Assembly (NCBI GenBank): GCA_017615655.1
Contig: JAFZZS010000007.1
Coordinates: 59,463-123,462, forward strand
Direction: 5' to 3'
Origin: Alphaproteobacteria bacterium
Lineage (GTDB): Bacteria > Pseudomonadota > Alphaproteobacteria > Rs-D84
Length of the DNA stretch: 64,000 nucleotides
Shown here: in pieces, positions 5,151 to 26,483 of the stretch
Layout of the letters: each line of letters starts with the position of its first letter
How positions within the stretch are numbered: position 1 is the first letter of the stretch
Made by a program: the position numbers and the translations under genes
Notes under the pieces: model-generated
Database searches by the model: none
The model's input: only the letters and a program-made list of their open reading frames with translations
What the model was told of the DNA's origin: nothing

Positions 5151-5943
5151 ATTTTCGTTTTTCACGCATTTCATTAACCAATTGTTCAAATTCGGCAAAT
5201 GATTTTATTCGTGTCAATTTATATGTTGATATTTTTACATTAAGATCGTTCAAAATTACACTTTGCCAATAGTTCATAGACAATGCCGCGCGAATCGTAG
5301 CCCATAATGGATTGATAGATTCATTTTCAATGCGTGAATCTGGCGCTTTGCCTTGGGCAATAAAAGATTGTTCTGCGGCATTACCAATATTATAAATTCG
5401 CATGCCAATATCTATTTTGATATCAAAAAACCTTTCCAATTCCTTTAATTTACTGGTCAATTTGGTAGAATCAAATCCAAATTCTTGGGTCTCACGTATA
5501 AGGTCACTAATTTTTTCTGTTGATTGAACTGGGCGCCCACAAGCAGTTTTAATGTTACCAAGAATATAACTAAAAATCATACGGCGGTTCCATTGTTTTC
5601 CTTTGCCGGATGTTTTTTTAACAACAGGTGTAGGTACACTGGGCACTTCGGGTATTTTTGTCGAATCTGATGTTTTATTTAGTTTGTTTTTTGAATTTAA
5701 TATAAATATAAAAACAACAGTGTAAAGTTCTGTTACCGTCATATCAGATATATTTCGTGATATATTCAATTTGAATTGGTTCCTGATTCGTTCTTTAATA
5801 AGGGCGATGTCTTCGGGAAATGTAATTATCTCGGATATTCTTGAAAGCGGATTAATAGTTTCGGCAAAGGTAGAATTTAATAAAATATTATTTACTTGCC
5901 TTTTAATAACAGCTTTAAGTTCTTGTGGTGTATTCGGTGCCAT
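5149..5943 (-). CDS. hypothetical protein
   Basis: 264 aa ORF, no recognisable motif; same strand as lpxI and the 136-aa ORF. Confidence 0.4.
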   Translation of the reverse strand: MAPNTPQELKAVIKRQVNNILLNSTFAETINPLSRISEIITFPEDIALIKERIRNQFKLNISRNISDMTVTELYTVVFIFILNSKNKLNKTSDSTKIPEVPSVPTPVVKKTSGKGKQWNRRMIFSYILGNIKTACGRPVQSTEKISDLIRETQEFGFDSTKLTSKLKELERFFDIKIDIGMRIYNIGNAAEQSFIAQGKAPDSRIENESINPLWATIRAALSMNYWQSVILNDLNVKISTYKLTRIKSFAEFEQLVNEMREKRK

Positions 5944-10221: not shown

Positions 10222-10470
10222 ATGACACACGATGATGTTTGGCGGGCAATAGAACAATTTGCGATGGCACATGGAATGTCATGTTCAGGTTTAGCACGCT
10301 GTAGCGGGCTGGATCCTACGACTTTTAACAAAAGTAAACGTTGGACCAAGGAAGGTCAGCCACGGTGGCCGTCAACAAATAGTATATCTAAAATATTGTC
10401 TTCGACAGGCGCATCTATCCAGGAATTTACCCGATTCATCGATGATAAAGGCAACGATTTCTCAAAATAA
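10222..10470 (+). CDS. phage-CI/LexA-type HTH DNA-binding protein, N-terminal domain only (no S24 peptidase domain)
   Basis: DVWRAIEQFAMAHGMSCSGLARCSGLDPTTFNKSKR matches the HTH N-terminus of alphaproteobacterial prophage repressors. 82 aa, so the protein is truncated or stand-alone. Confidence 0.6.
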   Translation: MTHDDVWRAIEQFAMAHGMSCSGLARCSGLDPTTFNKSKRWTKEGQPRWPSTNSISKILSSTGASIQEFTRFIDDKGNDFSK

Positions 10471-11670: not shown

Positions 11671-11699
11671 TTGACTTTAGGTCCTTTTTATGATATTAT
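11671..11699 (+). promoter_or_regulatory. consensus sigma70 promoter (TTGACT-17-TATTAT)
   Basis: -35 TTGACT at 11671..11676, a 17-nt spacer, -10 TATTAT at 11694..11699; drives the leader with tandem hairpins. Confidence 0.6.
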
Positions 11700-11726
11700 G
11701 ATGTACATCAAGGGGAAAGATATATT

Positions 11727-11776
11727 CACACGCAGGTGTGGATTTTTTTTTATACCGCACACATGTGCGGTTTTTT
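11727..11776 (+). terminator. two tandem terminator-like hairpins directly downstream of the promoter (candidate sRNA 3' ends or attenuator)
   Basis: cacac-gcag-gtgtg plus T9 (11727..11751), then ccgcac-acat-gtgcgg plus T6 (11755..11776). Confidence 0.5.
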
Positions 11777-11802: not shown

Positions 11803-12213
11803 ATGCAATTGGAAATTACTGAAATGCAGAACGGGACAATCTGTTTGGCAAATGCTATTGCGCGTATTGTTTATGCCGAAACTCTTGCGGTTTCTTTGCG
11901 GGTGATAGAAGCATTAACTTCCATGATTGCGAATGCAACACTAAATAACCGGCATGAAATAATAAAGATGTTATCAGATAAAAATATTTTCGAATCATTG
12001 AATACCGAATCATCGCGACATAAATATTTATCGGTGGATACATCAATACGTGGTTTCCAGGTTTGTGTACGTGTTGCAATTAGGATGTTGCATGGTAATT
12101 TAGATGATAGGTGTAATCACGCAACAAAGTTTCATCGGTCAGAATTATTACCCAGTTGGGCGATTGCATGTGGTTATGTCGCAGATATAGATGGAATATT
12201 GTTCTATGCATAA
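11803..12213 (+). CDS. hypothetical protein, possibly SleB-like cell-wall hydrolase (phage endolysin?)
   Basis: 136 aa; weak resemblance of TICLANAIARIVYAE to the Hydrolase_2 CLAxAIYxEA motif. First gene of the phage-like cluster. Confidence 0.3.
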   Translation: MQLEITEMQNGTICLANAIARIVYAETLAVSLRVIEALTSMIANATLNNRHEIIKMLSDKNIFESLNTESSRHKYLSVDTSIRGFQVCVRVAIRMLHGNLDDRCNHATKFHRSELLPSWAIACGYVADIDGILFYA

Positions 12214-12421: not shown

Positions 12422-13078
12422 ATGGAAAATATACCAGAAAAATTTTTAAACAAAGACGGCACACTAAACAGTGATGCATTGATGAAATCATATTCTGAAC
12501 TTGAAAAAAAGATTGGAACGATGATATCTGTTCCTGATGACGAATCAGATGAAGCAACGCAAAACCGCTTTCGTCGGGCGATTGGTGTTCCTGAAAGTGC
12601 TGATGATTATCCACATAATGAATTATTTGATAATGAAAATGTACGTCAAAAATTTCATGAAATTGGTTTAACAAGTTCACAAGTTGAAAAAATTTATGAT
12701 ATCGCCGAAGAATTTTTATCACCGATGTTTTCAAGAATTTTTTCTATTGAACAAGAATCAAATGCGATGCTAGAACTGAAAAAATTTTTTGGCTCAGATG
12801 AAAAAATGCGTGATGCATTTATTGCAATAAAATCTTTTGGCGAGAAATTTTTACCTGTAGACGCATTTAATGAATTATGCGCCAGCCCCCAGGGAATACA
12901 AGGCATTTACAAGATGATGCAATCAATGGAACCAAGTGTTGAAACTGCTACATCAACTATAGAAAATTTAACTGATTCTGATTTACGTCGTATGATGCGT
13001 GATCCAAAATATTGGCGCGATCACGATGAAGAATATGTGCGTAAAATTGAAAACGGATTTAAAAAATTATATTCCTAG
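12422..13078 (+). CDS. acidic phage scaffold-like protein (position-equivalent to T7 gp9)
   Basis: 219 aa, very acidic and helical; lies immediately upstream of the capsid gene; RBS aaaggaaaataaaATG. The ORF-track start at 12314 is probably upstream read-through. Confidence 0.4.
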   Translation: MENIPEKFLNKDGTLNSDALMKSYSELEKKIGTMISVPDDESDEATQNRFRRAIGVPESADDYPHNELFDNENVRQKFHEIGLTSSQVEKIYDIAEEFLSPMFSRIFSIEQESNAMLELKKFFGSDEKMRDAFIAIKSFGEKFLPVDAFNELCASPQGIQGIYKMMQSMEPSVETATSTIENLTDSDLRRMMRDPKYWRDHDEEYVRKIENGFKKLYS

Positions 13079-13196: not shown

Positions 13197-13490
13197 ATGG
13201 CATTCACATTCTTGAAAACCGCTGCAAAGAAGCCTGCAGCAAAGAAACCGGCAGCAAAGAAACCAGCTGCAAAGAAACCAGCTGCAAAAAAAGTTGCAGC
13301 AAAGAAACCAGCAGCAAAGAAACCAGCTGTAAAAAAAGTTGCAGCAAAAAAACCAGCAGCAAAGAAACCAGCTGTAAAAAAAGTTGCAGCAAAGAAACCA
13401 GCTGCAAAGAAAGTTGTTGCAAAAAAAGTTGCAGCAAAGAAACCAGCTGCTAAAAAAGCTTGCGCAAAAAAATGTGCAAAGAAAAAATAA
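13197..13490 (+). CDS. histone H1-like basic repeat protein (AAKKP pentapeptide repeats)
   Basis: MAFTFLKTAAKKPAAKKPAAKK...; 15-nt tandem repeats; SD aaaggagagaagaATG 7 nt upstream. The other two same-region ORFs (13088..13453, 13116..13505) are repeat-induced artefacts. Confidence 0.6.
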   Translation: MAFTFLKTAAKKPAAKKPAAKKPAAKKPAAKKVAAKKPAAKKPAVKKVAAKKPAAKKPAVKKVAAKKPAAKKVVAKKVAAKKPAAKKACAKKCAKKK

Positions 13491-13510
13491 TAATGTTATA
13501 GACATTATGA

Positions 13511-13586
13511 AATGCCCGTAAAATCGGGCATTTTTTTATATTAAAAATTTTCAGTCAGATATAAAAAGTCTGACTGAATCTTTTTA
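13511..13586 (+). terminator. two consecutive rho-independent terminators
   Basis: atgcccg-taaaat-cgggcat plus T7 (13511..13538); tcagtcaga-tataaaaa-gtctgactga plus T5 (13551..13586). Confidence 0.75.
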
Positions 13587-13715
13587 TGGATAATCCATTT
13601 TTTATGGACCCAATTCGATTTGTTTTCGGCGTCACATCGACATAACCGCTAATAAATTATTTGGCGGGCAAAATTTGTTTGCCTTGATTTAATCATTTTA
13701 ACAAAAGGAAAAATT

Positions 13716-14531
13716 ATGTCTGTTTCCATAGATCAGGTTTTTGTAAAACAATTTGAAGCAGATGTCCATTTGGCTTATCAGCAAATGGGAACAAAACTGC
13801 GTTCTACGATTCGCAGCAAATCTGGGGTCGTAGGCACTTCTACAACATTTCAAAAAATTGGCAAAGGAACTGCCAGCACGAAATCACGTCATGGTATTGT
13901 GCCAGTCATGAATCTTAATCATGCACCCGTAGAATGCACATTGCAGGATTATTACGCAGGTGATTGGGTTGACGCACTGGATGAATTGAAAATCAATATT
14001 GATGAACGTCGTGTTGTTGCATCTGCAGGCGCGTATGCATTGGGTCGCAAAACAGATGAATTAATCGTTGCGGCAATGAACAATGCAACCACATATGTTG
14101 GTGATTATTCCACAGGTCTTACCAAAACGTTAATTTTAACAGCACTGGAAAAATTAAATGAAAAAGATGTTCCAGATGATGGACGCAGATTCGGTGTTAT
14201 CGGTGTAAAGCAATGGAATGAATTGCTTGGTATAACCGAATTTTCATCCGCAGATTATGTTGGAAACGATTTGCCATTCATTAACGGATGCGAAACAAGA
14301 AAGTGGCTTGGTATTACATGGATTATGTATAACGATTTACCAATCTCTTCGGCGCATCGCGATTGCTTTATTTATCATGCTTCAAGTGTCGGGCATGCGT
14401 GTGGCCAAGAGGTTAAGACCGATATTACATGGCATGGTGAACGTGCAGCACACTTTATCAGCAATAGTATGTCGCAAGGGGCAGTATTAATAGACAGTGA
14501 TGGTATTGTGCGTGTTAAATGTGGCGAATAA
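13716..14531 (+). CDS. T7-like major capsid protein (gp10 homologue, shortened)
   Basis: VFVKQFEADVHLAYQQMGTKLRSTIRSKSGVVGTSTTFQKIGK parallels T7 gp10 LFLKVFGGEVLTAFARTSVTTSRHMVRSISSGKSAQFPVLGR. 271 aa. Confidence 0.7.
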   Translation: MSVSIDQVFVKQFEADVHLAYQQMGTKLRSTIRSKSGVVGTSTTFQKIGKGTASTKSRHGIVPVMNLNHAPVECTLQDYYAGDWVDALDELKINIDERRVVASAGAYALGRKTDELIVAAMNNATTYVGDYSTGLTKTLILTALEKLNEKDVPDDGRRFGVIGVKQWNELLGITEFSSADYVGNDLPFINGCETRKWLGITWIMYNDLPISSAHRDCFIYHASSVGHACGQEVKTDITWHGERAAHFISNSMSQGAVLIDSDGIVRVKCGE

Positions 14532-14839: not shown

Positions 14840-15358
14840 ATGCTAACGAAAATAGATTTATGTTCAATGGCGTTGTTAAAACTTGGTGAAAATCCAATTC
14901 AATCATTGTCAGATGATACCGCAACCGCAAAGCTTGGGCGTACGTTGGTCGATTTTGTTATAGATAGTTTGCTTACGATGCATCCGTGGAAATTTGCATG
15001 CAGAACATATAACCTGAATGCGAATATAGACGGTAGTTTCAATATACCCACAGATGTATTGCGTATTGTTAAAACAAATGGTCGCGTAATGGAAGATAAA
15101 ATAATTTCAGATTCTAAAGAAATTAGTATTACCGCGATTGTGCGTATATCTCCGGACAAATTTCCAAACTATTTTTCATCGCTTGTTGTAACAAAACTAG
15201 CCACAGAATTTTGTATGCCTATTACAGGCGATCAAACCGTATTTAGAACACTGGTCGCACTTTATGAAACAGAGTTACAAAATGCAAAATTCATAGACAG
15301 CACAACGTCGATAAATCCACAAATAGAAAATTTTTCACTTGTAGATGTTCGTTTCTAG
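14840..15358 (+). CDS. tail tubular protein A (T7 gp11 homologue)
   Basis: CSMALLKLGENPIQSLSDDTATAKLGRTLVDFVIDSLLTMHPWKF aligns with T7 gp11 [42 protein letters not shown]. Confidence 0.65.
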   Translation: MLTKIDLCSMALLKLGENPIQSLSDDTATAKLGRTLVDFVIDSLLTMHPWKFACRTYNLNANIDGSFNIPTDVLRIVKTNGRVMEDKIISDSKEISITAIVRISPDKFPNYFSSLVVTKLATEFCMPITGDQTVFRTLVALYETELQNAKFIDSTTSINPQIENFSLVDVRF

Positions 15359-15373
15359 TGTACGGGGGAAATC

Positions 15374-17080
15374 ATGGGAAATTTTATAAAAACACAAACT
15401 TCATTTGCTAATGGCGAGATTTCGCCCAATTTTTTTGCGAATGATAATATGCATGGTCTTGCATATATGGAAAATATGGATGTTATCCCGGGTGGGGGAC
15501 TTACCAGGCGTGCCGGACTAAAATCATTAGCTACATTACCATCTAGTGCCAGACTGATTTCTTTTTCAGCGTCTGAAAATGATAATTATGTCCTAGCGAT
15601 TATGAATGGAATTATTCGCGTGTTTTCTAGTGGCGAATTTGTGCAAGATATTATAGCGCCATGGACATCAAATGATTTGATGAAATTGCAATATGCGCAA
15701 CGTTTTGGAACGATAATATTTGTTCATCCAGATTATAAACCGCGAATACTTTCTTGTGAATCCAGCTCATTTCAATTGCTAGAATTTACATTTACATATA
15801 CCGATGATTTAAACAACATAAATATGCCGTTTATGCGATTCGAAGACTCTGAAGGTATAACATTAACACTTACGCATACAAATGACGGAGTGCAACTTAC
15901 AACGAATCAAGATTTTTGGACTCAAGATAATGTTTATGGGCATTTATCATTGCTTGGTAAAACATTTCTGGTACAAAGTTATATAGATTCGCGGAATATA
16001 ATCGCAGTATGTAATGGAACATTTACATACCCAAATACGCCAGTGTCTGATTGGAAAGAGGCGGTATTTAGTTATCGTCGGGGTTGGCCAATAAGCATAA
16101 CATTTCATCAAAATAGATTGGTGTTTGGCGGATCCAAATCATGGCCTGGTGGTGTTTGGATGTCTTGTGTCGGACAGCATAGAAATTTTAATACGGGTAC
16201 AGGACTTGATGACGAGGCGATATTTTTCACCTTACTATCAGGACGCAGGCAACATATTTGCACATTGGTAAGCAGTGATAATTTACAGATTCTTACATCT
16301 GAAGGCGAATGGGCGGTGTCCAATAAACCGCTGACACCCGAATCAGTAAATATAAAAATGCATACATCTGTGGGCAGTCCCGCGGATATATATTTGCCCC
16401 CACAAGAAATGGAAGGCAAAACGATATTCGTTTCTAATAACAAACAGGATATTCGTGAACTGACGTTGGATGAATTGGGCGAAAATTATAATGCGAATAA
16501 TTTATGCGAGTTATCTGCTCATTTGATACAAAAACCAATTGATATTGCGTACAACAAAAAACAAAAGCGTTTATTTGTCGTTATGCAAGACGGTAACATG
16601 GCCGTGTTAAATCGTGATGTATCACTGGATATATCTGCGTGGGGCCGTTATACCACAAGTGGTAAATTCTGTTCGGTCGTTGTTTGTGAAGGTAATACAT
16701 TTGTTGTTACGAAACGTGATACAACTTTTTATCTTGAGCAATTTTCTGATTCCGAAATGATAGATGCAACGAATCAAAAATATACGGTACGTGCCGTAGG
16801 GTTACCACTGATGTCGGCAGGGCATAATGCACACAAAATTCAAATAAGGAAGATTATTGCAAGATTGTATAATTCCAAGACGTTGTTTATAAATGGTCTG
16901 CGCGCAAATTTGCCCAATAATGCATATTCCATAGATTCTGGGGGGTATTCAGGCGACATTTCTATGAATACCATTGGAACATGTTTACCAATTAGTGACG
17001 CACCATGGGAATTATCTACGACAGATGCAATGCCGTTAACAATATTGTCTATAACAATATATGGCAGATATCAAATTTAA
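15374..17080 (+). CDS. tail tubular protein B (T7 gp12 homologue)
   Basis: N-terminus FANGEISPNFFANDNMHGLAYMENMDVIPGGGLTRRAGL...IRVFSSG parallels T7 gp12 LKGGISQQPDILRYPDQGSRQVNGWSSETEGLQKRPPL...GIRVFDLSG. 568 aa. Confidence 0.65.
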   Translation: MGNFIKTQTSFANGEISPNFFANDNMHGLAYMENMDVIPGGGLTRRAGLKSLATLPSSARLISFSASENDNYVLAIMNGIIRVFSSGEFVQDIIAPWTSNDLMKLQYAQRFGTIIFVHPDYKPRILSCESSSFQLLEFTFTYTDDLNNINMPFMRFEDSEGITLTLTHTNDGVQLTTNQDFWTQDNVYGHLSLLGKTFLVQSYIDSRNIIAVCNGTFTYPNTPVSDWKEAVFSYRRGWPISITFHQNRLVFGGSKSWPGGVWMSCVGQHRNFNTGTGLDDEAIFFTLLSGRRQHICTLVSSDNLQILTSEGEWAVSNKPLTPESVNIKMHTSVGSPADIYLPPQEMEGKTIFVSNNKQDIRELTLDELGENYNANNLCELSAHLIQKPIDIAYNKKQKRLFVVMQDGNMAVLNRDVSLDISAWGRYTTSGKFCSVVVCEGNTFVVTKRDTTFYLEQFSDSEMIDATNQKYTVRAVGLPLMSAGHNAHKIQIRKIIARLYNSKTLFINGLRANLPNNAYSIDSGGYSGDISMNTIGTCLPISDAPWELSTTDAMPLTILSITIYGRYQI

Positions 17081-17097: not shown

Positions 17098-17445
17098 ATG
17101 GGACAAATGATTTCAGATGTATCAGATATATTGAATTATCAAAGTAATAAAAAAAATGCTAATGCAACAAAAAAACAAATTTTGGCCGATATTGTAGCTG
17201 ATGAAAATCAGAAACAAAATCTTGTTAAAAAAGTGCTGGCAACGCAACGTGCAAAATACGGGGCATCAGGTATGAATAACAAGGGGCTTACCGAGGATGC
17301 AGTGTTAACAAGGTTAAAAAAAGAAACCGAACAACCATATGATTCGAAAAAAGAGGTCAATATTAGAAAGTTGAAAAATGCCAAGGTAAAAAAGAAAAAT
17401 TTATTGCTAACTGCATTGGCACATTTGGACAAATTGGTCGGATGA
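17098..17445 (+). CDS. putative small terminase subunit (position of T7 gp18)
   Basis: 115 aa, basic, directly upstream of terL; assignment by position only. Confidence 0.3.
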   Translation: MGQMISDVSDILNYQSNKKNANATKKQILADIVADENQKQNLVKKVLATQRAKYGASGMNNKGLTEDAVLTRLKKETEQPYDSKKEVNIRKLKNAKVKKKNLLLTALAHLDKLVG

Positions 17446-17449
17446 TAAT

Positions 17450-18043
17450 ATGAGTGTTTATAGCCAATTTTTAGATTCTTGGAACGAGGTAATCGGGTTT
17501 ACCGCTCCGGAACACCATTATCATATGACAGATTTTCTGGGAAATGTTATTAACGGAAATTCACGTCATGGATTACTAATGGCGTTTAGGCATTCTGGTA
17601 AATCAACGATTGTTGGAATTTTTGCGGCTTGTACTTTGTTTTTACGTCCGGAAACGCGAATATTAATATTGTCAGCAGAAACCCACCTTGCTACACGAAT
17701 GGTTATGCATATTCGTAATATATTGGAAAATCATCCATGGTGTACAGATTTGGTGCCAAAAAATAAACGCGAATGGGCGGAAAATAAAATAACGGTTAAT
17801 CGAGCCATAGGAATTCGTGAACCATCGGTTGTTTGTCAGGGAATATACGGCAATATAACAGGAATGCGTGCAGATTTAATAATATGCGATGATGTAGAGG
17901 TTCCAAACACCTGTAACACCGCGAGAAAGCGTACAGGACTGCGCGACAAATTGCGCGAACTTGATTTTATACTTTCACCAAACGGTGCGATGATTTACAT
18001 TGGAACCCCGCATACATTGGACACAATTTACAGAACAGACTAA
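17450..18043 (+). CDS. terminase large subunit, N-terminal ATPase fragment (gene interrupted)
   Basis: Walker A AFRHSGKST; Walker B ADLIICDDVE; motif III IYIGTPHT. The ORF stops after 197 aa, where the ATPase domain is incomplete. Confidence 0.8.
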   Translation: MSVYSQFLDSWNEVIGFTAPEHHYHMTDFLGNVINGNSRHGLLMAFRHSGKSTIVGIFAACTLFLRPETRILILSAETHLATRMVMHIRNILENHPWCTDLVPKNKREWAENKITVNRAIGIREPSVVCQGIYGNITGMRADLIICDDVEVPNTCNTARKRTGLRDKLRELDFILSPNGAMIYIGTPHTLDTIYRTD

Positions 18044-18702
18044 TTTTCTATAGAATTTGTCTGTTGGGGCAAGGAACTAATCAATGTGTGCAATTTCTGT
18101 AACAATTCGGATCCTTCTTCACCAAACATGGGTAAATATGTTTCATATTCTGGCAAATCTACCTGAAGTTGCGCACGCACACGATCATTTACAGGTTGCT
18201 TGATAAGGTCTTTGGCTTTTATCCATATATTATAAGCATTCCACATACGTGCAATTTGATCAAACTTGTCGAACATGTCAGTATCATTTGTCAGTATAGT
18301 TCGTATAGATGAAACCCAATCCGAACCAAAGCGACGAACAACGGGCGTAGATATGAAATTCTCTAGACCACGTTGATTCGGGGTAAAGGCGTTAATAGCA
18401 ACCTTTAATTCTTTTAGTTCCGGTTCTGTTATTTGAGTGTTTATTGGGCGTTCCGCAAATATACCACCATATGGTAATAATTCGCGAGATATAGAATCCA
18501 TAGGGGTCTTGCCACTGCGCAGGTTATTTATATGTTCAGATAATAATTTACCTGTCGGTAAATCTTTTAGTTCCTGGATTACGTCATCGGTGGCTTCGTC
18601 AATAAAAATTTTGTTTAACACGGACCAACCGCCTGCGATAACATGTGCTTGACGATAAAGGTTTAACAACTTCTGTGCGACAATGCTTGCTTTGGCTTTC
18701 AT
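18040..18702 (-). CDS. hypothetical protein (part of the insertion within terL)
   Basis: 220 aa; no motif recognised; stop codon overlaps the stop of the terL N-fragment convergently. Confidence 0.4.
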   Translation of the reverse strand: MKAKASIVAQKLLNLYRQAHVIAGGWSVLNKIFIDEATDDVIQELKDLPTGKLLSEHINNLRSGKTPMDSISRELLPYGGIFAERPINTQITEPELKELKVAINAFTPNQRGLENFISTPVVRRFGSDWVSSIRTILTNDTDMFDKFDQIARMWNAYNIWIKAKDLIKQPVNDRVRAQLQVDLPEYETYLPMFGEEGSELLQKLHTLISSLPQQTNSIEN

Positions 18703-18729
18703 CTCGTTTAATCCCCCATATTTAAAGAT

Positions 18730-19740
18730 TTATTCGGTCAAAACCATAATAACTTTGTGCATAGTTTTGGCGGTAATTTTCTCGTCAGGTGATATCATTT
18801 GACCATAAACTTTGCCCTTGGAGTCTTTACGAATCACTGCGATATTTGCACGAACAGTTTCTTCGGGTTTAAGTGCTTTGAAATCGGCGTCTATAAAGAC
18901 CGCCAAATCACCAACCGTGGCATTTATCTTCGCGTCTGCAAAAACATATGATTTTTCCGGAATAAAACCACCAAGACGCTTTGAATTTGGAATAACCGCA
19001 TAAACACCCTTGCGACCTTCAAGATTCGCAGGAGCATTTATCATTGTATTATCCGATTTTTTTAATGCGATATACTTGCCATCTGGATGACCAAATACGG
19101 GTACCAATTTACGACGTGCGGTTTCATATAATTTTGCACTGTAAAGGTGCCCTTGGGAATCACCGAAATCTGCGGACGAATCACCTGGAACCAAAATAGA
19201 TTTTACACGTTCTTTGACTTTGTTCATTTGTTTGATAAGTTCACCAGATTTGTAAAGTTGAGCAATTTTATCAAACATCGTCTCAACAGAACAAGCAAAC
19301 GAATTCGCAAGTGGTTCTATTTCATTTTGATATACTTCGCGCTGACCAACTTCAATTTTATGATAAACTGATAAGGTCATACCAGCATCTTTCGCCGCCT
19401 GAGCAATAGTCTTTCCGGATTGTTGGCGAATTTTACGTAACCCGCTACCAAATAATTTAAGACCACTGTCTTCGTTATCATTCATACGGCGTGTGATTTC
19501 GTCCTGCCATTTAGATGCAACTTCGTCTGTATCTTTGATAAAAATATCTGACAGCTTACAGCCCAAAATATTGCAGATATTCAACAACTGTTTTTGATTA
19601 AGGCGTCGGACACCTTTTTCAATCTTGGACACTGCAGACAAAGACAATCCTGAACGACGTGCCAGTTCAGTCATCTTCATACCTGCTGCAAGACGAATAT
19701 TGCGAATATTGTTTGGAAAAATGATTTCTTCCTGGGCCAT
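18730..19740 (-). CDS. CI-like transcriptional repressor with two XRE-family HTH domains and a degenerate S24-like C-terminal domain
   Basis: HTH1 NIRLAAGMKMTELARRSGLSLSAVSKIEKG; HTH2 LRKIRQQSGKTIAQAAKDAGMTLSVYHKIEVG; C-terminal beta-rich domain lacks a clear GDSM catalytic Ser-Lys dyad. Confidence 0.7.
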   Translation of the reverse strand: MAQEEIIFPNNIRNIRLAAGMKMTELARRSGLSLSAVSKIEKGVRRLNQKQLLNICNILGCKLSDIFIKDTDEVASKWQDEITRRMNDNEDSGLKLFGSGLRKIRQQSGKTIAQAAKDAGMTLSVYHKIEVGQREVYQNEIEPLANSFACSVETMFDKIAQLYKSGELIKQMNKVKERVKSILVPGDSSADFGDSQGHLYSAKLYETARRKLVPVFGHPDGKYIALKKSDNTMINAPANLEGRKGVYAVIPNSKRLGGFIPEKSYVFADAKINATVGDLAVFIDADFKALKPEETVRANIAVIRKDSKGKVYGQMISPDEKITAKTMHKVIMVLTE

Positions 19741-19762
19741 GTAAACCTCCTTGTATAAAATC

Positions 19763-19781
19763 TTGACAAAATGATAGTCAA
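19763..19781. promoter_or_regulatory. palindromic operator TTGACaaaatgataGTCAA overlapping the -35 of the repressor promoter
   Basis: On the minus strand: TTGACT-17-TTTATA-caAGGAGGtttacATG; the inverted repeat TTGAC-N9-GTCAA spans the -35 and spacer. Confidence 0.5.
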
Positions 19782-19817
19782 ATTTTGAAAACTTGGCAAG
19801 AAAATAATTATATAAAA

Positions 19818-21377
19818 TTACAAATCGATATCATCTGGTATTGCATTGATATCAATTTTGGGAACATCGGCGACCTGTTCAGGTGTATTTGATGCGAAAT
19901 CATCCGAGAACCCAGGAACATTGCTTTCCATTTCGTTAAGGTTATCAAACAAACTAAATTCTGCAAGGAAAGCAAGATGAACAGTATCTGTGCGCCCATG
20001 ACGGTTTTTCCCAATGATAAGGTCCGCTTTGCCTTTGGCTTTTTCTAGTCGAGCCTGCCAAGAACCCACAGATTTTTCGTTTGGCGTATTTGATAAGCGG
20101 TAAGATGGATCCCGGTTCTGCAAGTAATATTCCTCGCGATAGGTGAACATAACAATGTCAGCATCCTGTTCAATTGACCCGGAATCACGTAAATCGGATA
20201 ATTGTGGTCGTTTATCATCACGTGATTCGACACTGCGCGAAAGTTGTGAAAGTGCAATGACCGGAACATTTAATTCCTTGGCAAGCATCTTTAGACCGCG
20301 CGTTATTTCTGACAATTCTTGAACGCGGTTATCCTTGTTTTTGCCGCCTGGCGAAGTAATAAGTTGTAAATAGTCAATAACAATAAGCGAGATTCCATTA
20401 TATTTTCTGGCAAGCCTCCGTGCGCGAGTGCGTATCATCGGAACTGACATACCAGGTGTGTCATCAATGAACAAAGGAATACGACTTATTGCATCGGAAA
20501 ACTGGGTTAATTTTAGAAAATCTTCATCTGTCAAAGATTTACCTTCGCGCATTGCAGATGCCGGGATTCGTGATTGTGACGACAGCACGCGTGCAGCTAA
20601 TTCAGAGGCCCCCATTTCAAGACTGAAAAAGGCGACCGCACCTTTGAATTGCGGATTCGCACGTCCAGAGTAAATTGCGTTTGCCGCATTAAATGCGATA
20701 TTCATGGCCAATGCAGTTTTACCCATACCTGGACGACCAGCAATTATAAGCAAATTGGACTTATGCATTCCACTTATTGCACGATCCAAATCGGTTAACC
20801 CGGTTGTTAAACCAGATAAGTTGCCATCAGCCTTGTAAGCGATTTCTGTTTCAACAAGTGCTTCCTTTAGGGCATTTGCAATCGGAACGACGTCGCGACC
20901 AACATCCCCAGTAGTTGCCAAATTAAAAAGTTTTTGTTCGGCATTTTCAACCTGGGCAGACACTGGATTGTCCATATCTTCGACAAACGCATCATCCATG
21001 ATAGATTGCGCAAGATTTATAAGTTCACGACGCGTTGCATTTTCATGAACAATACGACCATATTGTTCAACATTTACTACGGTTGCACTGGCCCCAGCAA
21101 GTTGAGTCAAATAATCAACACCACCAACGGATTCCAGGGTACCTTGTTGATCCAAATAATTCTTTATAGTGATTATGTCAAATGGTACACCTGCCGCAAA
21201 CAACCGTACAGCAAGTTTATAAATTTCCTGGTGTGCAGGATGAGAAAAATCTTCGGGGCGCAGGAATTCGGTAACCTTTTCCAGTGCGCGATTGCTTATC
21301 AAAATCGCGGCCAATACGGCCTGTTCGGCCTCGATATTTGTTGGTAAAGTTTTGGGAGTAAAGTCCATGTCAAACAT
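19818..21377 (-). CDS. dnaB: replicative DNA helicase DnaB (full length, bacterial type) with short acidic C-terminal extension
   Basis: N-terminal domain LPTNIEAEQAVLAAILIS; Walker A IIAGRPGMGKTALAMN; Walker B LIVIDYLQL; arginine finger region; 519 aa. Confidence 0.92.
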   Translation of the reverse strand: MFDMDFTPKTLPTNIEAEQAVLAAILISNRALEKVTEFLRPEDFSHPAHQEIYKLAVRLFAAGVPFDIITIKNYLDQQGTLESVGGVDYLTQLAGASATVVNVEQYGRIVHENATRRELINLAQSIMDDAFVEDMDNPVSAQVENAEQKLFNLATTGDVGRDVVPIANALKEALVETEIAYKADGNLSGLTTGLTDLDRAISGMHKSNLLIIAGRPGMGKTALAMNIAFNAANAIYSGRANPQFKGAVAFFSLEMGASELAARVLSSQSRIPASAMREGKSLTDEDFLKLTQFSDAISRIPLFIDDTPGMSVPMIRTRARRLARKYNGISLIVIDYLQLITSPGGKNKDNRVQELSEITRGLKMLAKELNVPVIALSQLSRSVESRDDKRPQLSDLRDSGSIEQDADIVMFTYREEYYLQNRDPSYRLSNTPNEKSVGSWQARLEKAKGKADLIIGKNRHGRTDTVHLAFLAEFSLFDNLNEMESNVPGFSDDFASNTPEQVADVPKIDINAIPDDIDL

Positions 21378-22215
21378 AGTATATGAAAAAAATGTTTTTT
21401 CAACCCCTTTTTTATCGGGTTACGATGAACTAAGAATCCCAATCATTAATTCCGACGGAAGACCAGTATGGCCCGAAGTATTTCCAATTGAAAAGATTGA
21501 AAAAATTCGTAAAACCGTTGGAGAACGACATTTTTTGGCCCAAATGATGCTAGATTATGTTCCGTCAGATAAAATTAGACTTGATCCGGGGAGCATCAAG
21601 TTATATGACGATGATTTTGATATACATAATTCCAAATTAGGAGAAAATCAAATCACTGGTATGGCAATTTACTGGGATCCATCCAGTGGTCGCAAAAATT
21701 CTGACAACAGTGTGTGTGTTCTTATTTATCGTGATGACAAAAATATGCGTGTATTTGTGCACGATATACTTTATATGATTGTTCCCGAGACCGTTGAATA
21801 CCCATTGGCATATCAATGTAATCAGGCTTTGGAATTTGTGCGGCGTCATCATGGGCATAATATACATGTTGAAACAAATGGAATAGGTGGGGCTTTTCCA
21901 GAAATAATGCGAACCAATAATCCAAATTCGCAATACAAAGTTCAAATTTTGCCGATAAGTAACAGCCGGCGCAAAGAAGATCGGATTCTAGATACCATAG
22001 AGCCACTGTTAAGCACAGGGCGGCTTTATGCGCATCGCCGTATAACACAAACTCCACTAATAGCAGAAATGTTGGCATGGACCCCACTAGGCAGTGGGGA
22101 ACATGATGATGGTTTAGATGCATTAGCGGGGGCAATTAATGCGCATCCAAATGTGGTGCGCCCAATGGCATCGACATTTCAAAGATATGTTGCCAACACA
22201 AACTTTAAAATCTAA
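21367..22215 (+). CDS. terminase large subunit, C-terminal (lid plus RNaseH-like nuclease) fragment
   Basis: Nuclease motifs GMAIYWDPSSG and GEHDDGLDALAGAI. Start codon overlaps the dnaB start (21377) on the opposite strand. Confidence 0.78.
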   Translation: MSNIVYEKNVFSTPFLSGYDELRIPIINSDGRPVWPEVFPIEKIEKIRKTVGERHFLAQMMLDYVPSDKIRLDPGSIKLYDDDFDIHNSKLGENQITGMAIYWDPSSGRKNSDNSVCVLIYRDDKNMRVFVHDILYMIVPETVEYPLAYQCNQALEFVRRHHGHNIHVETNGIGGAFPEIMRTNNPNSQYKVQILPISNSRRKEDRILDTIEPLLSTGRLYAHRRITQTPLIAEMLAWTPLGSGEHDDGLDALAGAINAHPNVVRPMASTFQRYVANTNFKI

Positions 22216-22236
22216 CAAATAACAAAAGGAATAATT

Positions 22237-23463
22237 ATGAAATATGATTTACAAAAAATGTATACGCATGCATTGGCGGTTCGTGAACCATGGCTTAAAA
22301 GGTGGTACGATGCGCGCAAGTACACAATGCCGACATCAGATGAAGATATGGCAATGTTATTTGATGCGACCGCTGCGGATGCTGCAGATAACCTGGCAGC
22401 ATGTATGTATTCTTTGCTTACGCCCCCGGAATCATTGTGGTTGAATCTTGTTCCCGAAAGCCCAGAATCACCAAATGCAGAAGTTGCAACAGCTGTACTG
22501 CGTGCAAATCTTAACGATTCAAATTTTTATACAACAATTCATCAATGCTATATGGATTTGGTAACATTGGGAACGGCCTGTTTATTTATGGCAGAAAGTC
22601 CAATTGGTGCATCCAGTGCATTTTCATTTACTGCAATTCCAATGAAAGACATTGCGATTTTGCCGAATGCAGTTTTTCATACCACATCTATTTCGATTAG
22701 TGACGTGATGGCGCGTTATCCAGAATGGACACCTACACGTGAAATTGCCGACAAATTAAAACAAAATACCGATTTTTCGGTACGTTTAGTCCAGGCATTA
22801 ATAGGTTCTGATTTTACAGCGTGGTTGGATGTTGGTGGAAATCTTGAAAACAATATTGTATCGTGCGGAACGTTTGAAACAAATCCATACTTAATTTTCC
22901 GTTGGTCCGTAACCAGTGGTGAGCAATATGGTGTCGGACCAATTTTACGTGCATTACCTGATATAAAAACCGCAAATAAAGTTGTGGAACTGGTTTTGAA
23001 AAACGCAACTATTGCCGTCAGTGGTATATGGCAGGCAGACGATGATGGTGTCATAAATCTTGAAAATATTAATTTAACCCCCGGGGCAATAATTCCAAAA
23101 GCAGTAGGTAGCAGCGGTTTGACTCCACTTGCCACTGGGGCAAATTTTGATGTTTCACAAATTATACTAAAAGATCTACGCGAACGAATTCGTCATGCAT
23201 TACTTGCCGATAGATTGGGATTATTATCTGAAAAAGAAATGACGGCCACTGAAATATTGGCACGTAACGCGGACATGTTACGCATATTGGGTGCGACGTA
23301 TGGTCGATTATTGCACGAATTTATTCGTCCACTTTGTGACCGGGGACTGCAAATACTGTCACGTCGTGGTATCATAGATAAAATATCATTGCACAGTGAT
23401 GCGGAGTTAAAATACATTGCACCAATTGCCCAAATGGTTGCAGAAAACAACACAATTATATAA
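22237..23463 (+). CDS. head-to-tail connector (portal) protein, T7 gp8-like
   Basis: WLKRWYDARKYTMPTSDED parallels T7 gp8 YERLKNDRAPYETRAQNCAQYTIPSLFPKD. FRWSVTSGEQYGVGPILRALPDIKTANKVVELVLKNA parallels gp8 MVRLDGESYGRSYIEEYLGDLRSLENLQEAIVKMS. Confidence 0.7.
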   Translation: MKYDLQKMYTHALAVREPWLKRWYDARKYTMPTSDEDMAMLFDATAADAADNLAACMYSLLTPPESLWLNLVPESPESPNAEVATAVLRANLNDSNFYTTIHQCYMDLVTLGTACLFMAESPIGASSAFSFTAIPMKDIAILPNAVFHTTSISISDVMARYPEWTPTREIADKLKQNTDFSVRLVQALIGSDFTAWLDVGGNLENNIVSCGTFETNPYLIFRWSVTSGEQYGVGPILRALPDIKTANKVVELVLKNATIAVSGIWQADDDGVINLENINLTPGAIIPKAVGSSGLTPLATGANFDVSQIILKDLRERIRHALLADRLGLLSEKEMTATEILARNADMLRILGATYGRLLHEFIRPLCDRGLQILSRRGIIDKISLHSDAELKYIAPIAQMVAENNTII

Positions 23464-23476
23464 CAGGGAATTTATT

Positions 23477-23683
23477 ATGAGAAATTTAGAATTGTCATAC
23501 GCTAAGACATTTTCATCTGATTCTGGCGCAATTGTTATCGCACATTTGCGCCGAATAACAATTGAACGTGTGTTGGGACCAAATGCAACAGAATCAGAAT
23601 TACGTACACTTGAAGGCGCACGCGCATTGGTACATCAAATTGAACAGTTGATATTACGGGGGCGGCAAAATGCAAAAACATAA
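23477..23683 (+). CDS. hypothetical small protein (start uncertain)
   Basis: ORF 23417..23683; plausible start at MRNLELSYAK. Confidence 0.3.
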   Translation: MRNLELSYAKTFSSDSGAIVIAHLRRITIERVLGPNATESELRTLEGARALVHQIEQLILRGRQNAKT

Positions 23684-23927
23684 TGGTATCAGCGGAATAA
23701 TAGAAACATTACGCAACAGTTGGTTTTTAATTGCGTTTATTGCGGGACTTATATACTGGGTTGCGCGCCAGGATAATGCATTGATCGAACTTGATAGGTT
23801 AACTGTTCGAATGACTACATTAGAAAATCGTACTACGGTATTAGAAACAGGAATAGGGCAATTACAATTAAAAATCGATGCAATCAAAGAAGATTTGACT
23901 CTAATTAAAACTGCCGTGATTAAGTAA
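23670..23927 (+). CDS. small membrane protein with C-terminal coiled coil (holin/spanin-like?)
   Basis: TM segment WFLIAFIAGLIYWVA; heptad-like LTVRMTTLENRTTVLETGIGQLQLKIDAIKEDL. Confidence 0.35.
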   Translation: MQKHNGISGIIETLRNSWFLIAFIAGLIYWVARQDNALIELDRLTVRMTTLENRTTVLETGIGQLQLKIDAIKEDLTLIKTAVIK

Positions 23928-25134: not shown

Positions 25135-25785
25135 CTATTTCTCGTCTATAATAACATCCTGGACATAAAACATAAACACAACCGCGGGATCAATTCCACG
25201 ACGTAACGCATTTTGAACGGCATCGATAGGTTGTTTTATCTCACCTGTATAGTCAACGTTCAAATACATCGTACCCCGTTTCACAGTTGGGATTTCTGTC
25301 ATGTCATTCGGTTTATACCATGTTTTTGTCTCATAATCAACCTGCAAATAATCACTTGCCTCTGGGGTTAAAATTTCATCAAAAACAGTAACAGTTCGGC
25401 GAACACCTTTTGATGCCTCTTCACGAATATCTTGTGCGGTTATTTGCCGCCATTTATCAAAAACGTTCGGTGACGACATATATGACAGTGGCGCATTTAT
25501 ACCATTACGTATGGTGCGTTGTTCAATATTTTCTGATCCTGGTTCAATGTACAAATATTCATATACAAATTTTTGTGCCAACCAATCACGCAGTTTTCTA
25601 TACTGAACATCCGCCAATGTCTTGGGATTCCCAATTTGGTCAGTAGACAGTAACCCCAGCCTAAAGAAATATGGTTGGATTTCTATTTTATCACTGGTTT
25701 CATATATCGCACTGGCCAAATACAGACTTGCAAAAACGCAAATCATTGTCGCAAAACCGAAAAGATAACCAAATAATTTTCGCAT
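25135..25785 (-). CDS. bitopic membrane protein of unknown function
   Basis: N-terminal TM FGYLFGFATMICVFASLYLASAI followed by a soluble domain; start overlaps the stop of the upstream gene (translational coupling). Confidence 0.45.
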   Translation of the reverse strand: MRKLFGYLFGFATMICVFASLYLASAIYETSDKIEIQPYFFRLGLLSTDQIGNPKTLADVQYRKLRDWLAQKFVYEYLYIEPGSENIEQRTIRNGINAPLSYMSSPNVFDKWRQITAQDIREEASKGVRRTVTVFDEILTPEASDYLQVDYETKTWYKPNDMTEIPTVKRGTMYLNVDYTGEIKQPIDAVQNALRRGIDPAVVFMFYVQDVIIDEK

Positions 25786-26483
25786 TATTGCTCCCTGTAT
25801 GCATTAAAGTCCGCCACATAGTACCCAAGTGTTTGCGGATATAGTTTTACATCGCGTTCAATGCGGATATAGGCAATTATTTGAAAATCGCCATGTATGC
25901 TTGAACGAACGCGTGCACGCGCAATCCAGTTACCACCATCTTTTGTAATATTGCCATTTGGCGTCACAATGATTCTTGATGGATTTACATACCAACGTTC
26001 ACCCAACGCCGCAAAAGACTGATAAAGTGGTACAACATCGTCAGCAAAAGAACGATATAGATTTTCTTCGGCGAGACAGAATATATTACATTCCATATTT
26101 CTACGCAGTGTCGTCTCTACGCGATTTGCACATACTGTTTCACGATTGCAGGTGTTCCAACGTGCCTCGTTCATCTCGGGATTATCCGATAGCGTAAACC
26201 ATCTTTCTGTAAAAACTCCGACCAGAGCGCGCTGCATCGAGGTATAATATGGAACAGGTTGTCTAATCTTTTGTTGCCCCAGCAATTCCCATTTGCCATT
26301 TGCCCCATCAACGTAAATTATAAAAGGCTCTATTGTCCGATTTTGTATAATCCATGGTATCGCAACACAACAAAAAAGTATAAGAAGAAAAGAAACAAAT
26401 ATCCAAATCCCCGCAGTTCGGGAAACGGCAATTCGTTTTCCCGCCGGAAATGCCGACGTTTCAAAATCTTCTGGATAATCCAT
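25785..26483 (-). CDS. bitopic membrane protein, VirB8-like topology and motifs (tentative)
   Basis: Cytoplasmic N-terminus, TM IWIFVSFLLILFCCVAIPWII, then PFIIYVDGANGKW (VirB8 PYVVEVD..G), ...FTERWFTL (VirB8 FVERVRSV), C-terminal GYYVADFNAY (VirB8 GVYITDFTW). Confidence 0.4.
   Translation of the reverse strand: MDYPEDFETSAFPAGKRIAVSRTAGIWIFVSFLLILFCCVAIPWIIQNRTIEPFIIYVDGANGKWELLGQQKIRQPVPYYTSMQRALVGVFTERWFTLSDNPEMNEARWNTCNRETVCANRVETTLRRNMECNIFCLAEENLYRSFADDVVPLYQSFAALGERWYVNPSRIIVTPNGNITKDGGNWIARARVRSSIHGDFQIIAYIRIERDVKLYPQTLGYYVADFNAYREQ

Follow-up and report, generated by a model that had tools for sequence, protein, structure and literature searches.

The DNA considered here (hereafter the window) is a stretch of 64,000 nucleotides from an alphaproteobacterium of the Rs-D84 lineage (GenBank assembly GCA_017615655.1, contig JAFZZS010000007.1, positions 59,463 to 123,462). 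It is chromosomal, with genes for PriA, a ComM-like protein, MurJ, a class II aminoacyl-tRNA synthetase, BamA, RseP, CdsA, UppS and Frr. It also carries a cluster of T7-like phage genes in which the gene for the large terminase subunit (terL) is present as two pieces on the forward strand, terN and terC. As a preliminary description of this DNA had noted, the 3.3 kb between the pieces are filled by three genes on the opposite strand, coding for an unknown protein of 220 amino acids (aa), a 336-aa protein with two helix-turn-helix (HTH) domains, and a bacterial-type DnaB helicase:

17450..18043, forward strand: terN, 197 aa, N-terminal piece of a T7-type large terminase, comprising the ATPase Rossmann core through motif III (Terminase_6N)
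18040..18702, reverse strand: u220, 220 aa, conserved all-helical protein of no family, whose stop overlaps the terN stop
18730..19740, reverse strand: 336-aa regulator with two XRE-type HTH_3 domains (E 2.7e-21) and an uncharacterised C-terminal domain
19818..21368, reverse strand: dnaB, with the DnaB N-terminal and DnaB_C domains (PF00772, PF03796), of cellular alphaproteobacterial type
21367..22215, forward strand: terC, 282 aa, predicted to hold the last ATPase strand, the lid helices, the linker and the RNaseH-like nuclease

We found that terN contains the Walker A (AFRHSGKST, residues 45-53), Walker B (DLIICDDVE, 142-150) and motif III (GTP, 185-187) elements of the ATPase, and that it matches the T7-type terminase family NF033889 over positions 3-190 of 500 with 226 bits (cutoff 150). 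terC covers positions 217-500 of the same family with 111.8 bits when taken alone, which is below the equivalog cutoff of 150. It matches Terminase_6C and the T7 RNaseH-like family (PF22530, PF17289) above their cutoffs, and contains the motifs YWDPSSG and EHDDGLDAL. WDPS..D and HDDGLD are invariant across 24 terC orthologues, and the terN motifs are likewise invariant among the orthologues of that piece. Being collinear and non-overlapping both on NF033889 and on intact homologues, the two pieces bear out the proposal that they are adjoining parts of one ancestral terL, and are complementary pieces of one gene, not a separate ATPase plus an unrelated nuclease. Their summed length (197 + 282 = 479 aa) matches that of intact homologues (463-505 aa), which indicates that nothing has been lost and leaves no room for an intein. 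This T7-type terminase is not encoded as a single polypeptide but, throughout the clade, as two open reading frames (ORFs) 3.3 kb apart. A close relative among isolated phages was sought without success, their TerL proteins being at best 25-28% identical to the split terminase.

Two PHROG families annotated as terminase large subunit are of half length: phrog_4758 (243 positions) matches terN, and phrog_5573 (250 positions) matches terC. Given these half-length families, other phages may likewise carry a split or interrupted T7-like terL. One locus of the split type (L088, 8228..9436, protein P0003) has a terC of 402 aa, about 120 residues more than the usual 282.

Relatives were collected by scanning one genome per GTDB species, and 183 species were found to have one; the analysis used the best 80. 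All of these come from rumen and gut and belong to Candidatus Enterousia or to unnamed Alphaproteobacteria; their terC matches span the full 282 aa at 52-73% identity. Candidatus Enterousia belongs to the order Rs-D84 and has genomes of ~0.75-1.0 Mb without the tricarboxylic acid cycle and respiration (PMC12306168). A search with the concatenated halves recovered the C-terminal piece as a stand-alone protein of ~280 aa in many metagenome-assembled genomes of Alphaproteobacteria (58-80% identity, contigs of at most 272 kb); the intact homologues in the same search were just 40-44% identical. When the window proteins were mapped onto the best 80 species, gene order was identical in every relative locus long enough to show it: on the forward strand a lysin-like gene (p136), scaffold, capsid, tube, nozzle, p115 and terN; then u220, the HTH gene and dnaB on the opposite strand; then terC, portal, Bbp19 and p85. 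About 50 IMG/VR contigs have the same layout as the window. The cluster is bordered on the left by a BPL/LipB-like (lipoate/biotin-ligase-like) gene and on the right usually by yraN, p272 and bamA, and one relative locus sits on a complete circular long-read chromosome of 958,618 bp. The GC content of the 3.3 kb insert (0.41) does not set it apart from the window (0.39). As the data are all metagenomic, an assembly or binning artefact joining unrelated contigs might be suspected. However, the junctions are identical in over 130 independent assemblies, which come from different studies and hosts, were built with different assemblers and include the circular long-read chromosome, and this explanation is effectively refuted. 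The arrangement is neither chance nor a recent insertion.

Relatives with an intact terL are widespread in other Alphaproteobacteria, where they form modules of ~10 kb (L005, L006, L089, and IMG/VR loci such as L091-L094); judging by their names, some of the IMG/VR contigs may derive from genomes of isolates. They carry, in this order, a minus-strand S24 repressor gene, two small genes, portal, Bbp19, scaffold, capsid, tube, nozzle, further small genes, terL and the gene of a SleB-like lysin. In the stretches that we examined these elements had neither an integrase nor replication genes, and the compact modules may themselves be undescribed mini-phages or elements similar to gene transfer agents (GTAs). 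L005 and L089 share an Lnt flank. The Enterousia order, with the lysin first and portal and Bbp19 after terL, is rearranged with respect to these elements, and we could not derive it from the portal-first order by any single inversion or insertion. Two loci (L117 and L127) are arranged as terL, lysin, portal, Bbp19, scaffold, capsid, tube, nozzle, a circular permutation of the other intact elements that hints at a circular or concatemeric form.

Concerning the position of the break, terL had been described as split exactly between its ATPase and nuclease halves, a placement that did not withstand structural comparison. In an alignment to intact homologues, all terN orthologues end with 1-15 variable, often acidic, residues after GTPHTxDTIYRT, and terC starts with MS(N/D)IVY(E/K)..FSTPFL.GY, the intact sequence being resumed at GFLxG. 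We placed the break on an AlphaFold2 model of the intact homologue P0062 (pLDDT 84.6), whose Foldseek matches include the terminases of PhiV-1 (a T7-group phage), T4, D6E, Sf6 and HK97. In this model the motif III strand (178-188) is followed by a loop (189-208), a further strand (209-213) and helices (230-249), while the nuclease begins at ~265 and its sheet at ~267. The break maps to around residue 200/201, within the loop 189-208, which varies in length through insertions and deletions among intact homologues. The 250-aa ATPase domain of P74-26 aligns over ~280 columns of the model, indicating that the ATPase domain reaches about residue 260. The break is thus predicted to lie in the loop after motif III, inside the ATPase domain, and terC would supply the last strand and the lid of this domain besides the nuclease, so that a working enzyme would need both chains to reassemble.

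Both junctions of the insert are of zero length and without untranslated space, as originally described: the stops of terN and u220 overlap at 18040..18043, and the starts of dnaB and terC overlap at 21367..21377. The left-hand stops share 4 nt (TTAA, CTAG, CTAA or TTAG) in 56 of 73 loci. A palindrome reported to straddle this junction (18034..18064) is present in the window but is not conserved in relatives, and was discarded on that ground as a candidate bidirectional terminator. At the right junction, the ATG at 21377, first taken as the dnaB start, is found in a subset of loci only; it is the ATG at 21368 (MDFTPKTLPTN..., 516 aa) that is conserved as a start, the window frame staying open to 21377. 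The dnaB and terC start codons share CATG in almost all loci, and the Shine-Dalgarno sequence of terC, GGGAG, is formed by Thr-Pro codons of dnaB. The beginning of terC in turn contains a promoter-like element for dnaB:

21376..21403, reverse strand: dnaB promoter-like element, TTGAAA (21403..21398), N16, TACTAT (21381..21376)

This element occupies terC codons 3-13 and ends 7 nt before the dnaB ATG. TTGAAA is found in 69 of 77 loci, and the second box reads TACTAT in 57 of the 77 and TACCAT in 9, the spacing being fixed. Third-codon-position information reaches 1.2-1.3 bits over terC codons 1-20, as compared to a gene mean of 0.56, consistent with an embedded dnaB promoter. Inspection of the junction revealed no Shine-Dalgarno sequence ahead of dnaB. 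With a promoter-like element 7 nt from its ATG and no Shine-Dalgarno sequence, the dnaB mRNA would be leaderless or near-leaderless.

Nothing appears to rejoin the two halves at the DNA, RNA or protein level, which favours a permanent separation. The preliminary description had proposed that terL was the target of a self-contained replication/immunity cassette, or that excision of the insert restores the gene. We could not find any direct or inverted repeats, or a DNA-level target-site duplication, at the insert junctions, and family-library scans of the three enclosed proteins gave no match to a recombinase family. A mobile cassette is hard to reconcile with this lack of recombinase, flanking repeats, intron or intein, and with a layout that is fixed clade-wide. 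The end of terN (TIYRTD) and the start of terC (IVYEKN) are vaguely alike at the protein level; the latter stretch also encodes the dnaB -10 box, so this likeness cannot show a duplication. Excision fares no better, given the missing recombinase and repeats, and given that terN has its own stop and terC its own conserved start and Shine-Dalgarno sequence. A more elaborate version would have the insert removed by programmed DNA rearrangement in particle-producing cells, in the manner of skin and SPbeta, restoring terL and deleting dnaB. The topology does resemble that of known gene-interrupting elements, a lysing producer could afford to lose dnaB, and u220 could in principle be a novel recombinase. 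Such programmed excision is nevertheless very improbable, as u220 is all-helical and has no structural match, the terN stop follows a variable tail, and precise joining would have to remove the stop and start signals without any guide sequence.

In some phages terL contains a self-splicing intron or an intein, and the halves could similarly be joined by group I or group II intron splicing, by trans-splicing, or by a split intein. In line with this, the terL of herpesviruses is spliced across a gene-bearing intron (PMC6466031), and PHROGs include the half-size TerL families described above. However, a search of the whole window against Rfam at gathering thresholds returned three tRNAs only, and relaxing it to E <= 1 over 17300-22400 gave no intron or other RNA family apart from one chance snoRNA-like match. 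Moreover, the insert is filled with selected antisense ORFs that leave no room for an intron core, the two pieces add up to an intact TerL with no intein sequence left over, and terN tails vary in length. We can give splicing of any kind very little credence.

The type of the enclosed DnaB points to a cellular protein. It scores 601 bits (cutoff 540) on NF006606, the equivalog for alphaproteobacterial replicative helicases, and 516 (385) on TIGR00665, but remains under the cutoff of the phage_DnaB family TIGR03600 (417 against 499). Among clusters at 50% identity, one full-length representative exceeds 50%, P0241 at 67%, which is presumably the Enterousia clade's own; after it, Stellaceae (49%) and Rhodomicrobium (47%) supply the nearest named clusters, both of replicative helicases. 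The top 'phage' match, MT835812, is an unverified and unannotated contig of 53% GC that has none of the cluster genes, and is uninformative. These scores, together with a constraint and co-divergence similar to those of BamA (see below) and genomes smaller than 1 Mb, make the host's replicative helicase the best-supported reading of the enclosed gene. From genome size and level of constraint we also infer that it is the genome's only dnaB.

Alternatively, the insert might be the element's own replication/immunity module, consisting of a phage DnaB with its repressor and partner, the host dnaB being elsewhere. Many phages do encode DnaB-family helicases, 1480 phage records match this one (all at less than 60% identity), and the XRE-type HTH protein of the insert has PHROG repressor matches. 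However, the best phage matches reach just 42-49% identity, the protein is above the NF006606 cutoff and below that of phage_DnaB, and it is as constrained as BamA in genomes of less than 1 Mb. Furthermore, dnaB, the HTH gene and u220 are absent near terL in all of more than 150 intact-terL loci, and the element-type repressor is probably another gene, located upstream of the cluster:

10222..10470, forward strand: 82-aa HTH protein, homologous to the DNA-binding N-terminus of the Peptidase_S24 repressor of intact-terL elements, candidate cluster repressor

This 82-aa protein aligns by tblastn with residues 3-71 of the L005 S24 repressor (42% identity, E 2e-16) and is without the S24 autocleavage domain. 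It has 592 homologues, the best 120 of which are 65-91% identical, mostly ~80 aa long, and include Candidatus Enterousia. It would thus be the candidate for the element-type repressor, distinct from the 336-aa HTH protein, and we regard an insert belonging to the element itself as quite unlikely.

The 336-aa protein had been presented as a CI-like repressor. Its HTH DNA-binding domains are indeed present, and its first ~70 residues are almost invariant in an alignment across the clade. However, no S24/CI-type C-terminal domain is detectable, residues 211-336 giving no Pfam match even at E 5. Kinship with the S24 repressors of the intact elements was considered and discarded, as hhalign aligns the HTH only, with a probability of 2.5%.

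Around the split terminase, the cluster comprises predicted control signals followed by head, tail and lysis genes:

11671..11699, forward strand: cluster promoter, sigma70-like, -35 TTGACT at 11671, -10 ending at 11699 (scan 10/12 with TG)
11724..11752 and 11754..11776, forward strand: leader hairpins with U-runs, terminator-like, just upstream of the first cluster gene
11803..12213, forward strand: p136, first cluster gene, Hydrolase_2 (SleB-like) lysin homologue, 26-31% identical by tblastn to the Hydrolase_2 genes downstream of intact terL
12422..13078, forward strand: T7-type scaffold / capsid assembly protein (PF05396)
13716..14531, forward strand: major capsid protein (PF19821; phrog_3437 major head protein, E 1e-72)
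14840..15358, forward strand: tail tubular protein A, gp11-like (PF17212 Tube, 21.4 bits, just under the cutoff of 22.3)
15374..17080, forward strand: tail tubular protein B / nozzle, gp12-like (phrog_376 tail protein, E 3.5e-80; Phage_nozzle faint in orthologues)
17098..17445, forward strand: p115, small lysine-rich protein directly upstream of terN, conserved in all loci, no family match
22237..23463, forward strand: portal, or head-to-tail connector (PF12236, E 1.5e-76)
23477..23683, forward strand: Bbp19-like small phage protein (PF25181, E 1.4e-10)
23670..23927, forward strand: p85, last cluster gene, membrane helix and coiled coil, conserved in all loci

The cluster promoter (CTTGACTTT-N17-TATGATA) is present in all 35 loci that include the region, and a conserved box, CATCAAnAGGAGA, directly follows its -10. 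The leader hairpins covary, with 11 pairs in RNAalifold, 8 of them supported by compensatory double changes. A promoter followed by tandem terminators is reminiscent of phage late operons governed by antitermination and suggests antitermination control of the whole cluster, and on this basis terC, portal, Bbp19 and p85 would likely be reached by read-through only; no second copy of the promoter lies upstream of terC in the window. The match of p85 to XhlA, a lysis protein of PBSX, is weak (PF10779, E 0.0055, below cutoff), and p85 is a possible holin-like lysis factor or lysis accessory. Family scans of the cluster, which spans ~12 kb, identified no integrase and no phage replication genes, the cellular-type dnaB being the sole replication gene.

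One subclade carries an additional gene between p115 and terN, at 5526..6074 in L003 and at the equivalent position in many loci, where p115 and terN are ~550 nt apart. Its 182-aa product has a weak match to the N-terminal domain of T7 tail fibres (PF03906), and the gene is absent from the subclade of the window. Just outside the cluster of L003, a 154-aa protein (13199..13663) adjoining yraN carries an Mtd_N domain, the N-terminal domain of the major tropism determinant of Bordetella phage BPP-1. In the window, the uncharacterised genes between the cluster and bamA include one for a 232-aa VirB8-like protein (25785..26483), and a 1472-aa ORF (33885..38303) is without any Pfam match.

The cluster shows signs of sustained selection. 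All 72 terN and all 81 terC orthologues are free of internal stops. Ratios of nonsynonymous to synonymous substitution rates (dN/dS, Nei-Gojobori), which are approximate because the median dS of ~1.3 is near saturation, are 0.10 for terN and 0.17 for terC, as compared to 0.085 for capsid, 0.074 for portal, 0.10 for nozzle, 0.084 for the HTH protein, 0.073 for DnaB, 0.072 for BamA and 0.21 for u220, and range over 0.07-0.26 in the tests of the cluster. Mean pairwise identities follow the order capsid (0.85), portal (0.82), BamA (0.81), DnaB (0.80), terN (0.77) and terC (0.62). Pairwise divergences of the structural genes are correlated with those of DnaB (r 0.81-0.89; 0.90 for BamA). Together with the low dN/dS, this indicates that the T7-like module has co-diverged with its host and is constrained about as strongly as housekeeping genes, which is apparently the signature of a domesticated GTA-like element and not of a decaying prophage. 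A framing as a prophage is thus replaced by that of a compact T7-like module, vertically inherited and under selection, and not a recent phage.

It could be argued that the two halves are no longer a terminase, but a decaying or partly exapted remnant kept for new functions or for the expression signals of dnaB. terC is in fact the less conserved half, its 5' end is constrained by the dnaB promoter and the start overlap, and packaging is a prediction from gene content. However, purifying selection extends along the full length of both halves, and the catalytic motifs are kept in every orthologue. Portal, capsid, scaffold, tube, nozzle and lysin are also all kept, with housekeeping-level conservation in a streamlined genome, and such a full set of particle genes would be hard to explain without DNA packaging. 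We therefore consider loss of terminase function unlikely.

On balance, the cluster is probably a vertically inherited, domesticated GTA-like module of T7 type, whose terminase consists of two polypeptides and which encloses the host dnaB operon. The ~12 kb head, tail and lysis module occupies a fixed chromosomal locus in a Candidatus Enterousia-like host. In the common ancestor of the clade, terL would have been broken in a surface loop just after motif III, and would have been kept as two genes since. The Rossmann core supplied by terN and the last strand, lid and nuclease supplied by terC would reassemble non-covalently into a working terminase, and the cluster would produce particles. From a promoter within the first 13 terC codons, dnaB would be transcribed into a leaderless or near-leaderless mRNA; the first dnaB codons in turn contain the terC ribosome-binding site. 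Finally, terC, portal, Bbp19 and p85 would most likely be reached only by transcription that resists the terminators and continues antisense across the dnaB cassette, and we hypothesize that this read-through entails transcriptional interference between dnaB and particle production.

Several points weigh against this reading. The cluster is known from sequence, all genomes are metagenome-assembled, and the near-saturated dS noted above makes the dN/dS values approximate. The conservation of the terC 5' end is partly due to the dnaB promoter and not to terC function, and these genomes might hold a second, divergent dnaB elsewhere. A scan for a promoter serving terC and portal found none convincing, and the antiterminator is a postulate. 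Lastly, Kanamaru et al. reportedly expressed the ATPase and nuclease domains of T4 gp17 separately in 2004, and packaging is said not to have been reconstituted. Against this background a two-piece terminase would be unusual, and more so with a break inside the ATPase domain.

A bolder extension of the domesticated-module reading, which is speculative and on the whole rather unlikely, would see here an undescribed T7-like GTA with an obligate two-subunit terminase, in which the sole dnaB and a master regulator are nested antisense as a built-in switch. Antiterminated late transcription would have to cross dnaB head-on on its way to terC and portal, silencing chromosome replication, whereas active dnaB transcription would block the packaging genes.

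The arrangement itself is real, old and selected, and combines a domesticated phage-particle cluster with a split enzyme gene, the mechanism being a proposal. If the halves work together, they would represent a natural two-piece viral packaging motor, broken inside its ATPase domain, which may inform how the lid and nuclease of the terminase communicate with the ATPase core. The cluster would also add a T7-type GTA-like element to Alphaproteobacteria, and a genome of less than 1 Mb that devotes more than 1% of its DNA to particles would argue for a strong benefit. The promoter of an essential gene within a phage-derived coding sequence, whose ribosome-binding site in turn lies in the first codons of that gene, would be an extreme interlock of host and virus genes. 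An antagonism between replication and particle production becomes testable with public metatranscriptomes and viromes from rumen and gut.

A literature search recovered no description of a bacterial or phage terminase encoded as two genes around host genes, and nothing relevant beyond herpesviruses, in which the large terminase gene consists of two exons separated by an intron with two to five genes (PMC6466031). As in Enterousia, the herpesvirus gene (UL15 of herpes simplex virus 1, UL89 of human cytomegalovirus) codes for an ATPase-nuclease of the same superfamily and is interrupted by a block of genes across a whole lineage. However, its exons are joined by nuclear mRNA splicing, whereas the Enterousia halves carry separate translation signals and enclose genes of the host. 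In alphaherpesviruses the intron genes UL16 and UL17 are also on the opposite strand. The herpesvirus break falls between Walker A and Walker B, and that of Enterousia after motif III. The two interruptions are independent events, and herpesviruses provide the nearest topological precedent.

With T7-type terminases (gp19; NF033889; PDB 8dgc, 4bij), the Enterousia protein shares the sequence and fold family, the Walker A and B, motif III and RNaseH-like motifs, and the gene neighbours portal, scaffold, capsid, tube and nozzle, but it is made as two polypeptides of 197 and 282 aa. The intact T7-like elements of other Alphaproteobacteria have homologous portal, Bbp19, scaffold, capsid, tube, nozzle, terL (40-44% identity) and lysin genes, and differ in their single-gene terL, their portal-first order and the full-length S24 repressor alongside.

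Functional genes interrupted by several kb of other genes are also known from the skin and SPbeta elements of B. subtilis and from phi10403S in comK of Listeria. In Enterousia the roles are reversed, as host genes interrupt a phage-derived gene, and we found no recombinase or att repeats. A further parallel comes from Nanoarchaeum equitans, whose reduced genome encodes a split reverse gyrase and other split enzymes. There too an enzyme of a streamlined genome is made from two ORFs presumed to associate, but the halves are scattered and usually split between domains, whereas those of Enterousia flank one operon, share overlapping start and stop signals with it, and are split within a domain.

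Among GTAs, a podovirus-like type has been represented by the GTA-like element of Faecalibacterium, FpGTA, reported in 2026 as the first of its kind (PMC12946183). Like RcGTA, BaGTA and FpGTA, the Enterousia element is a phage-derived cluster with genes for structure, packaging and lysis but none for integration or replication, kept at a fixed chromosomal locus by vertical inheritance and purifying selection, and its host is alphaproteobacterial; it differs in being T7-like (podovirus), as judged by its genes, as opposed to the HK97-like siphovirus type. We know of no GTA with a split terminase or a nested essential host gene. In its gene content, its vertical inheritance and the purifying selection acting on it, the Enterousia element nevertheless appears to bear the genomic hallmarks of a GTA.

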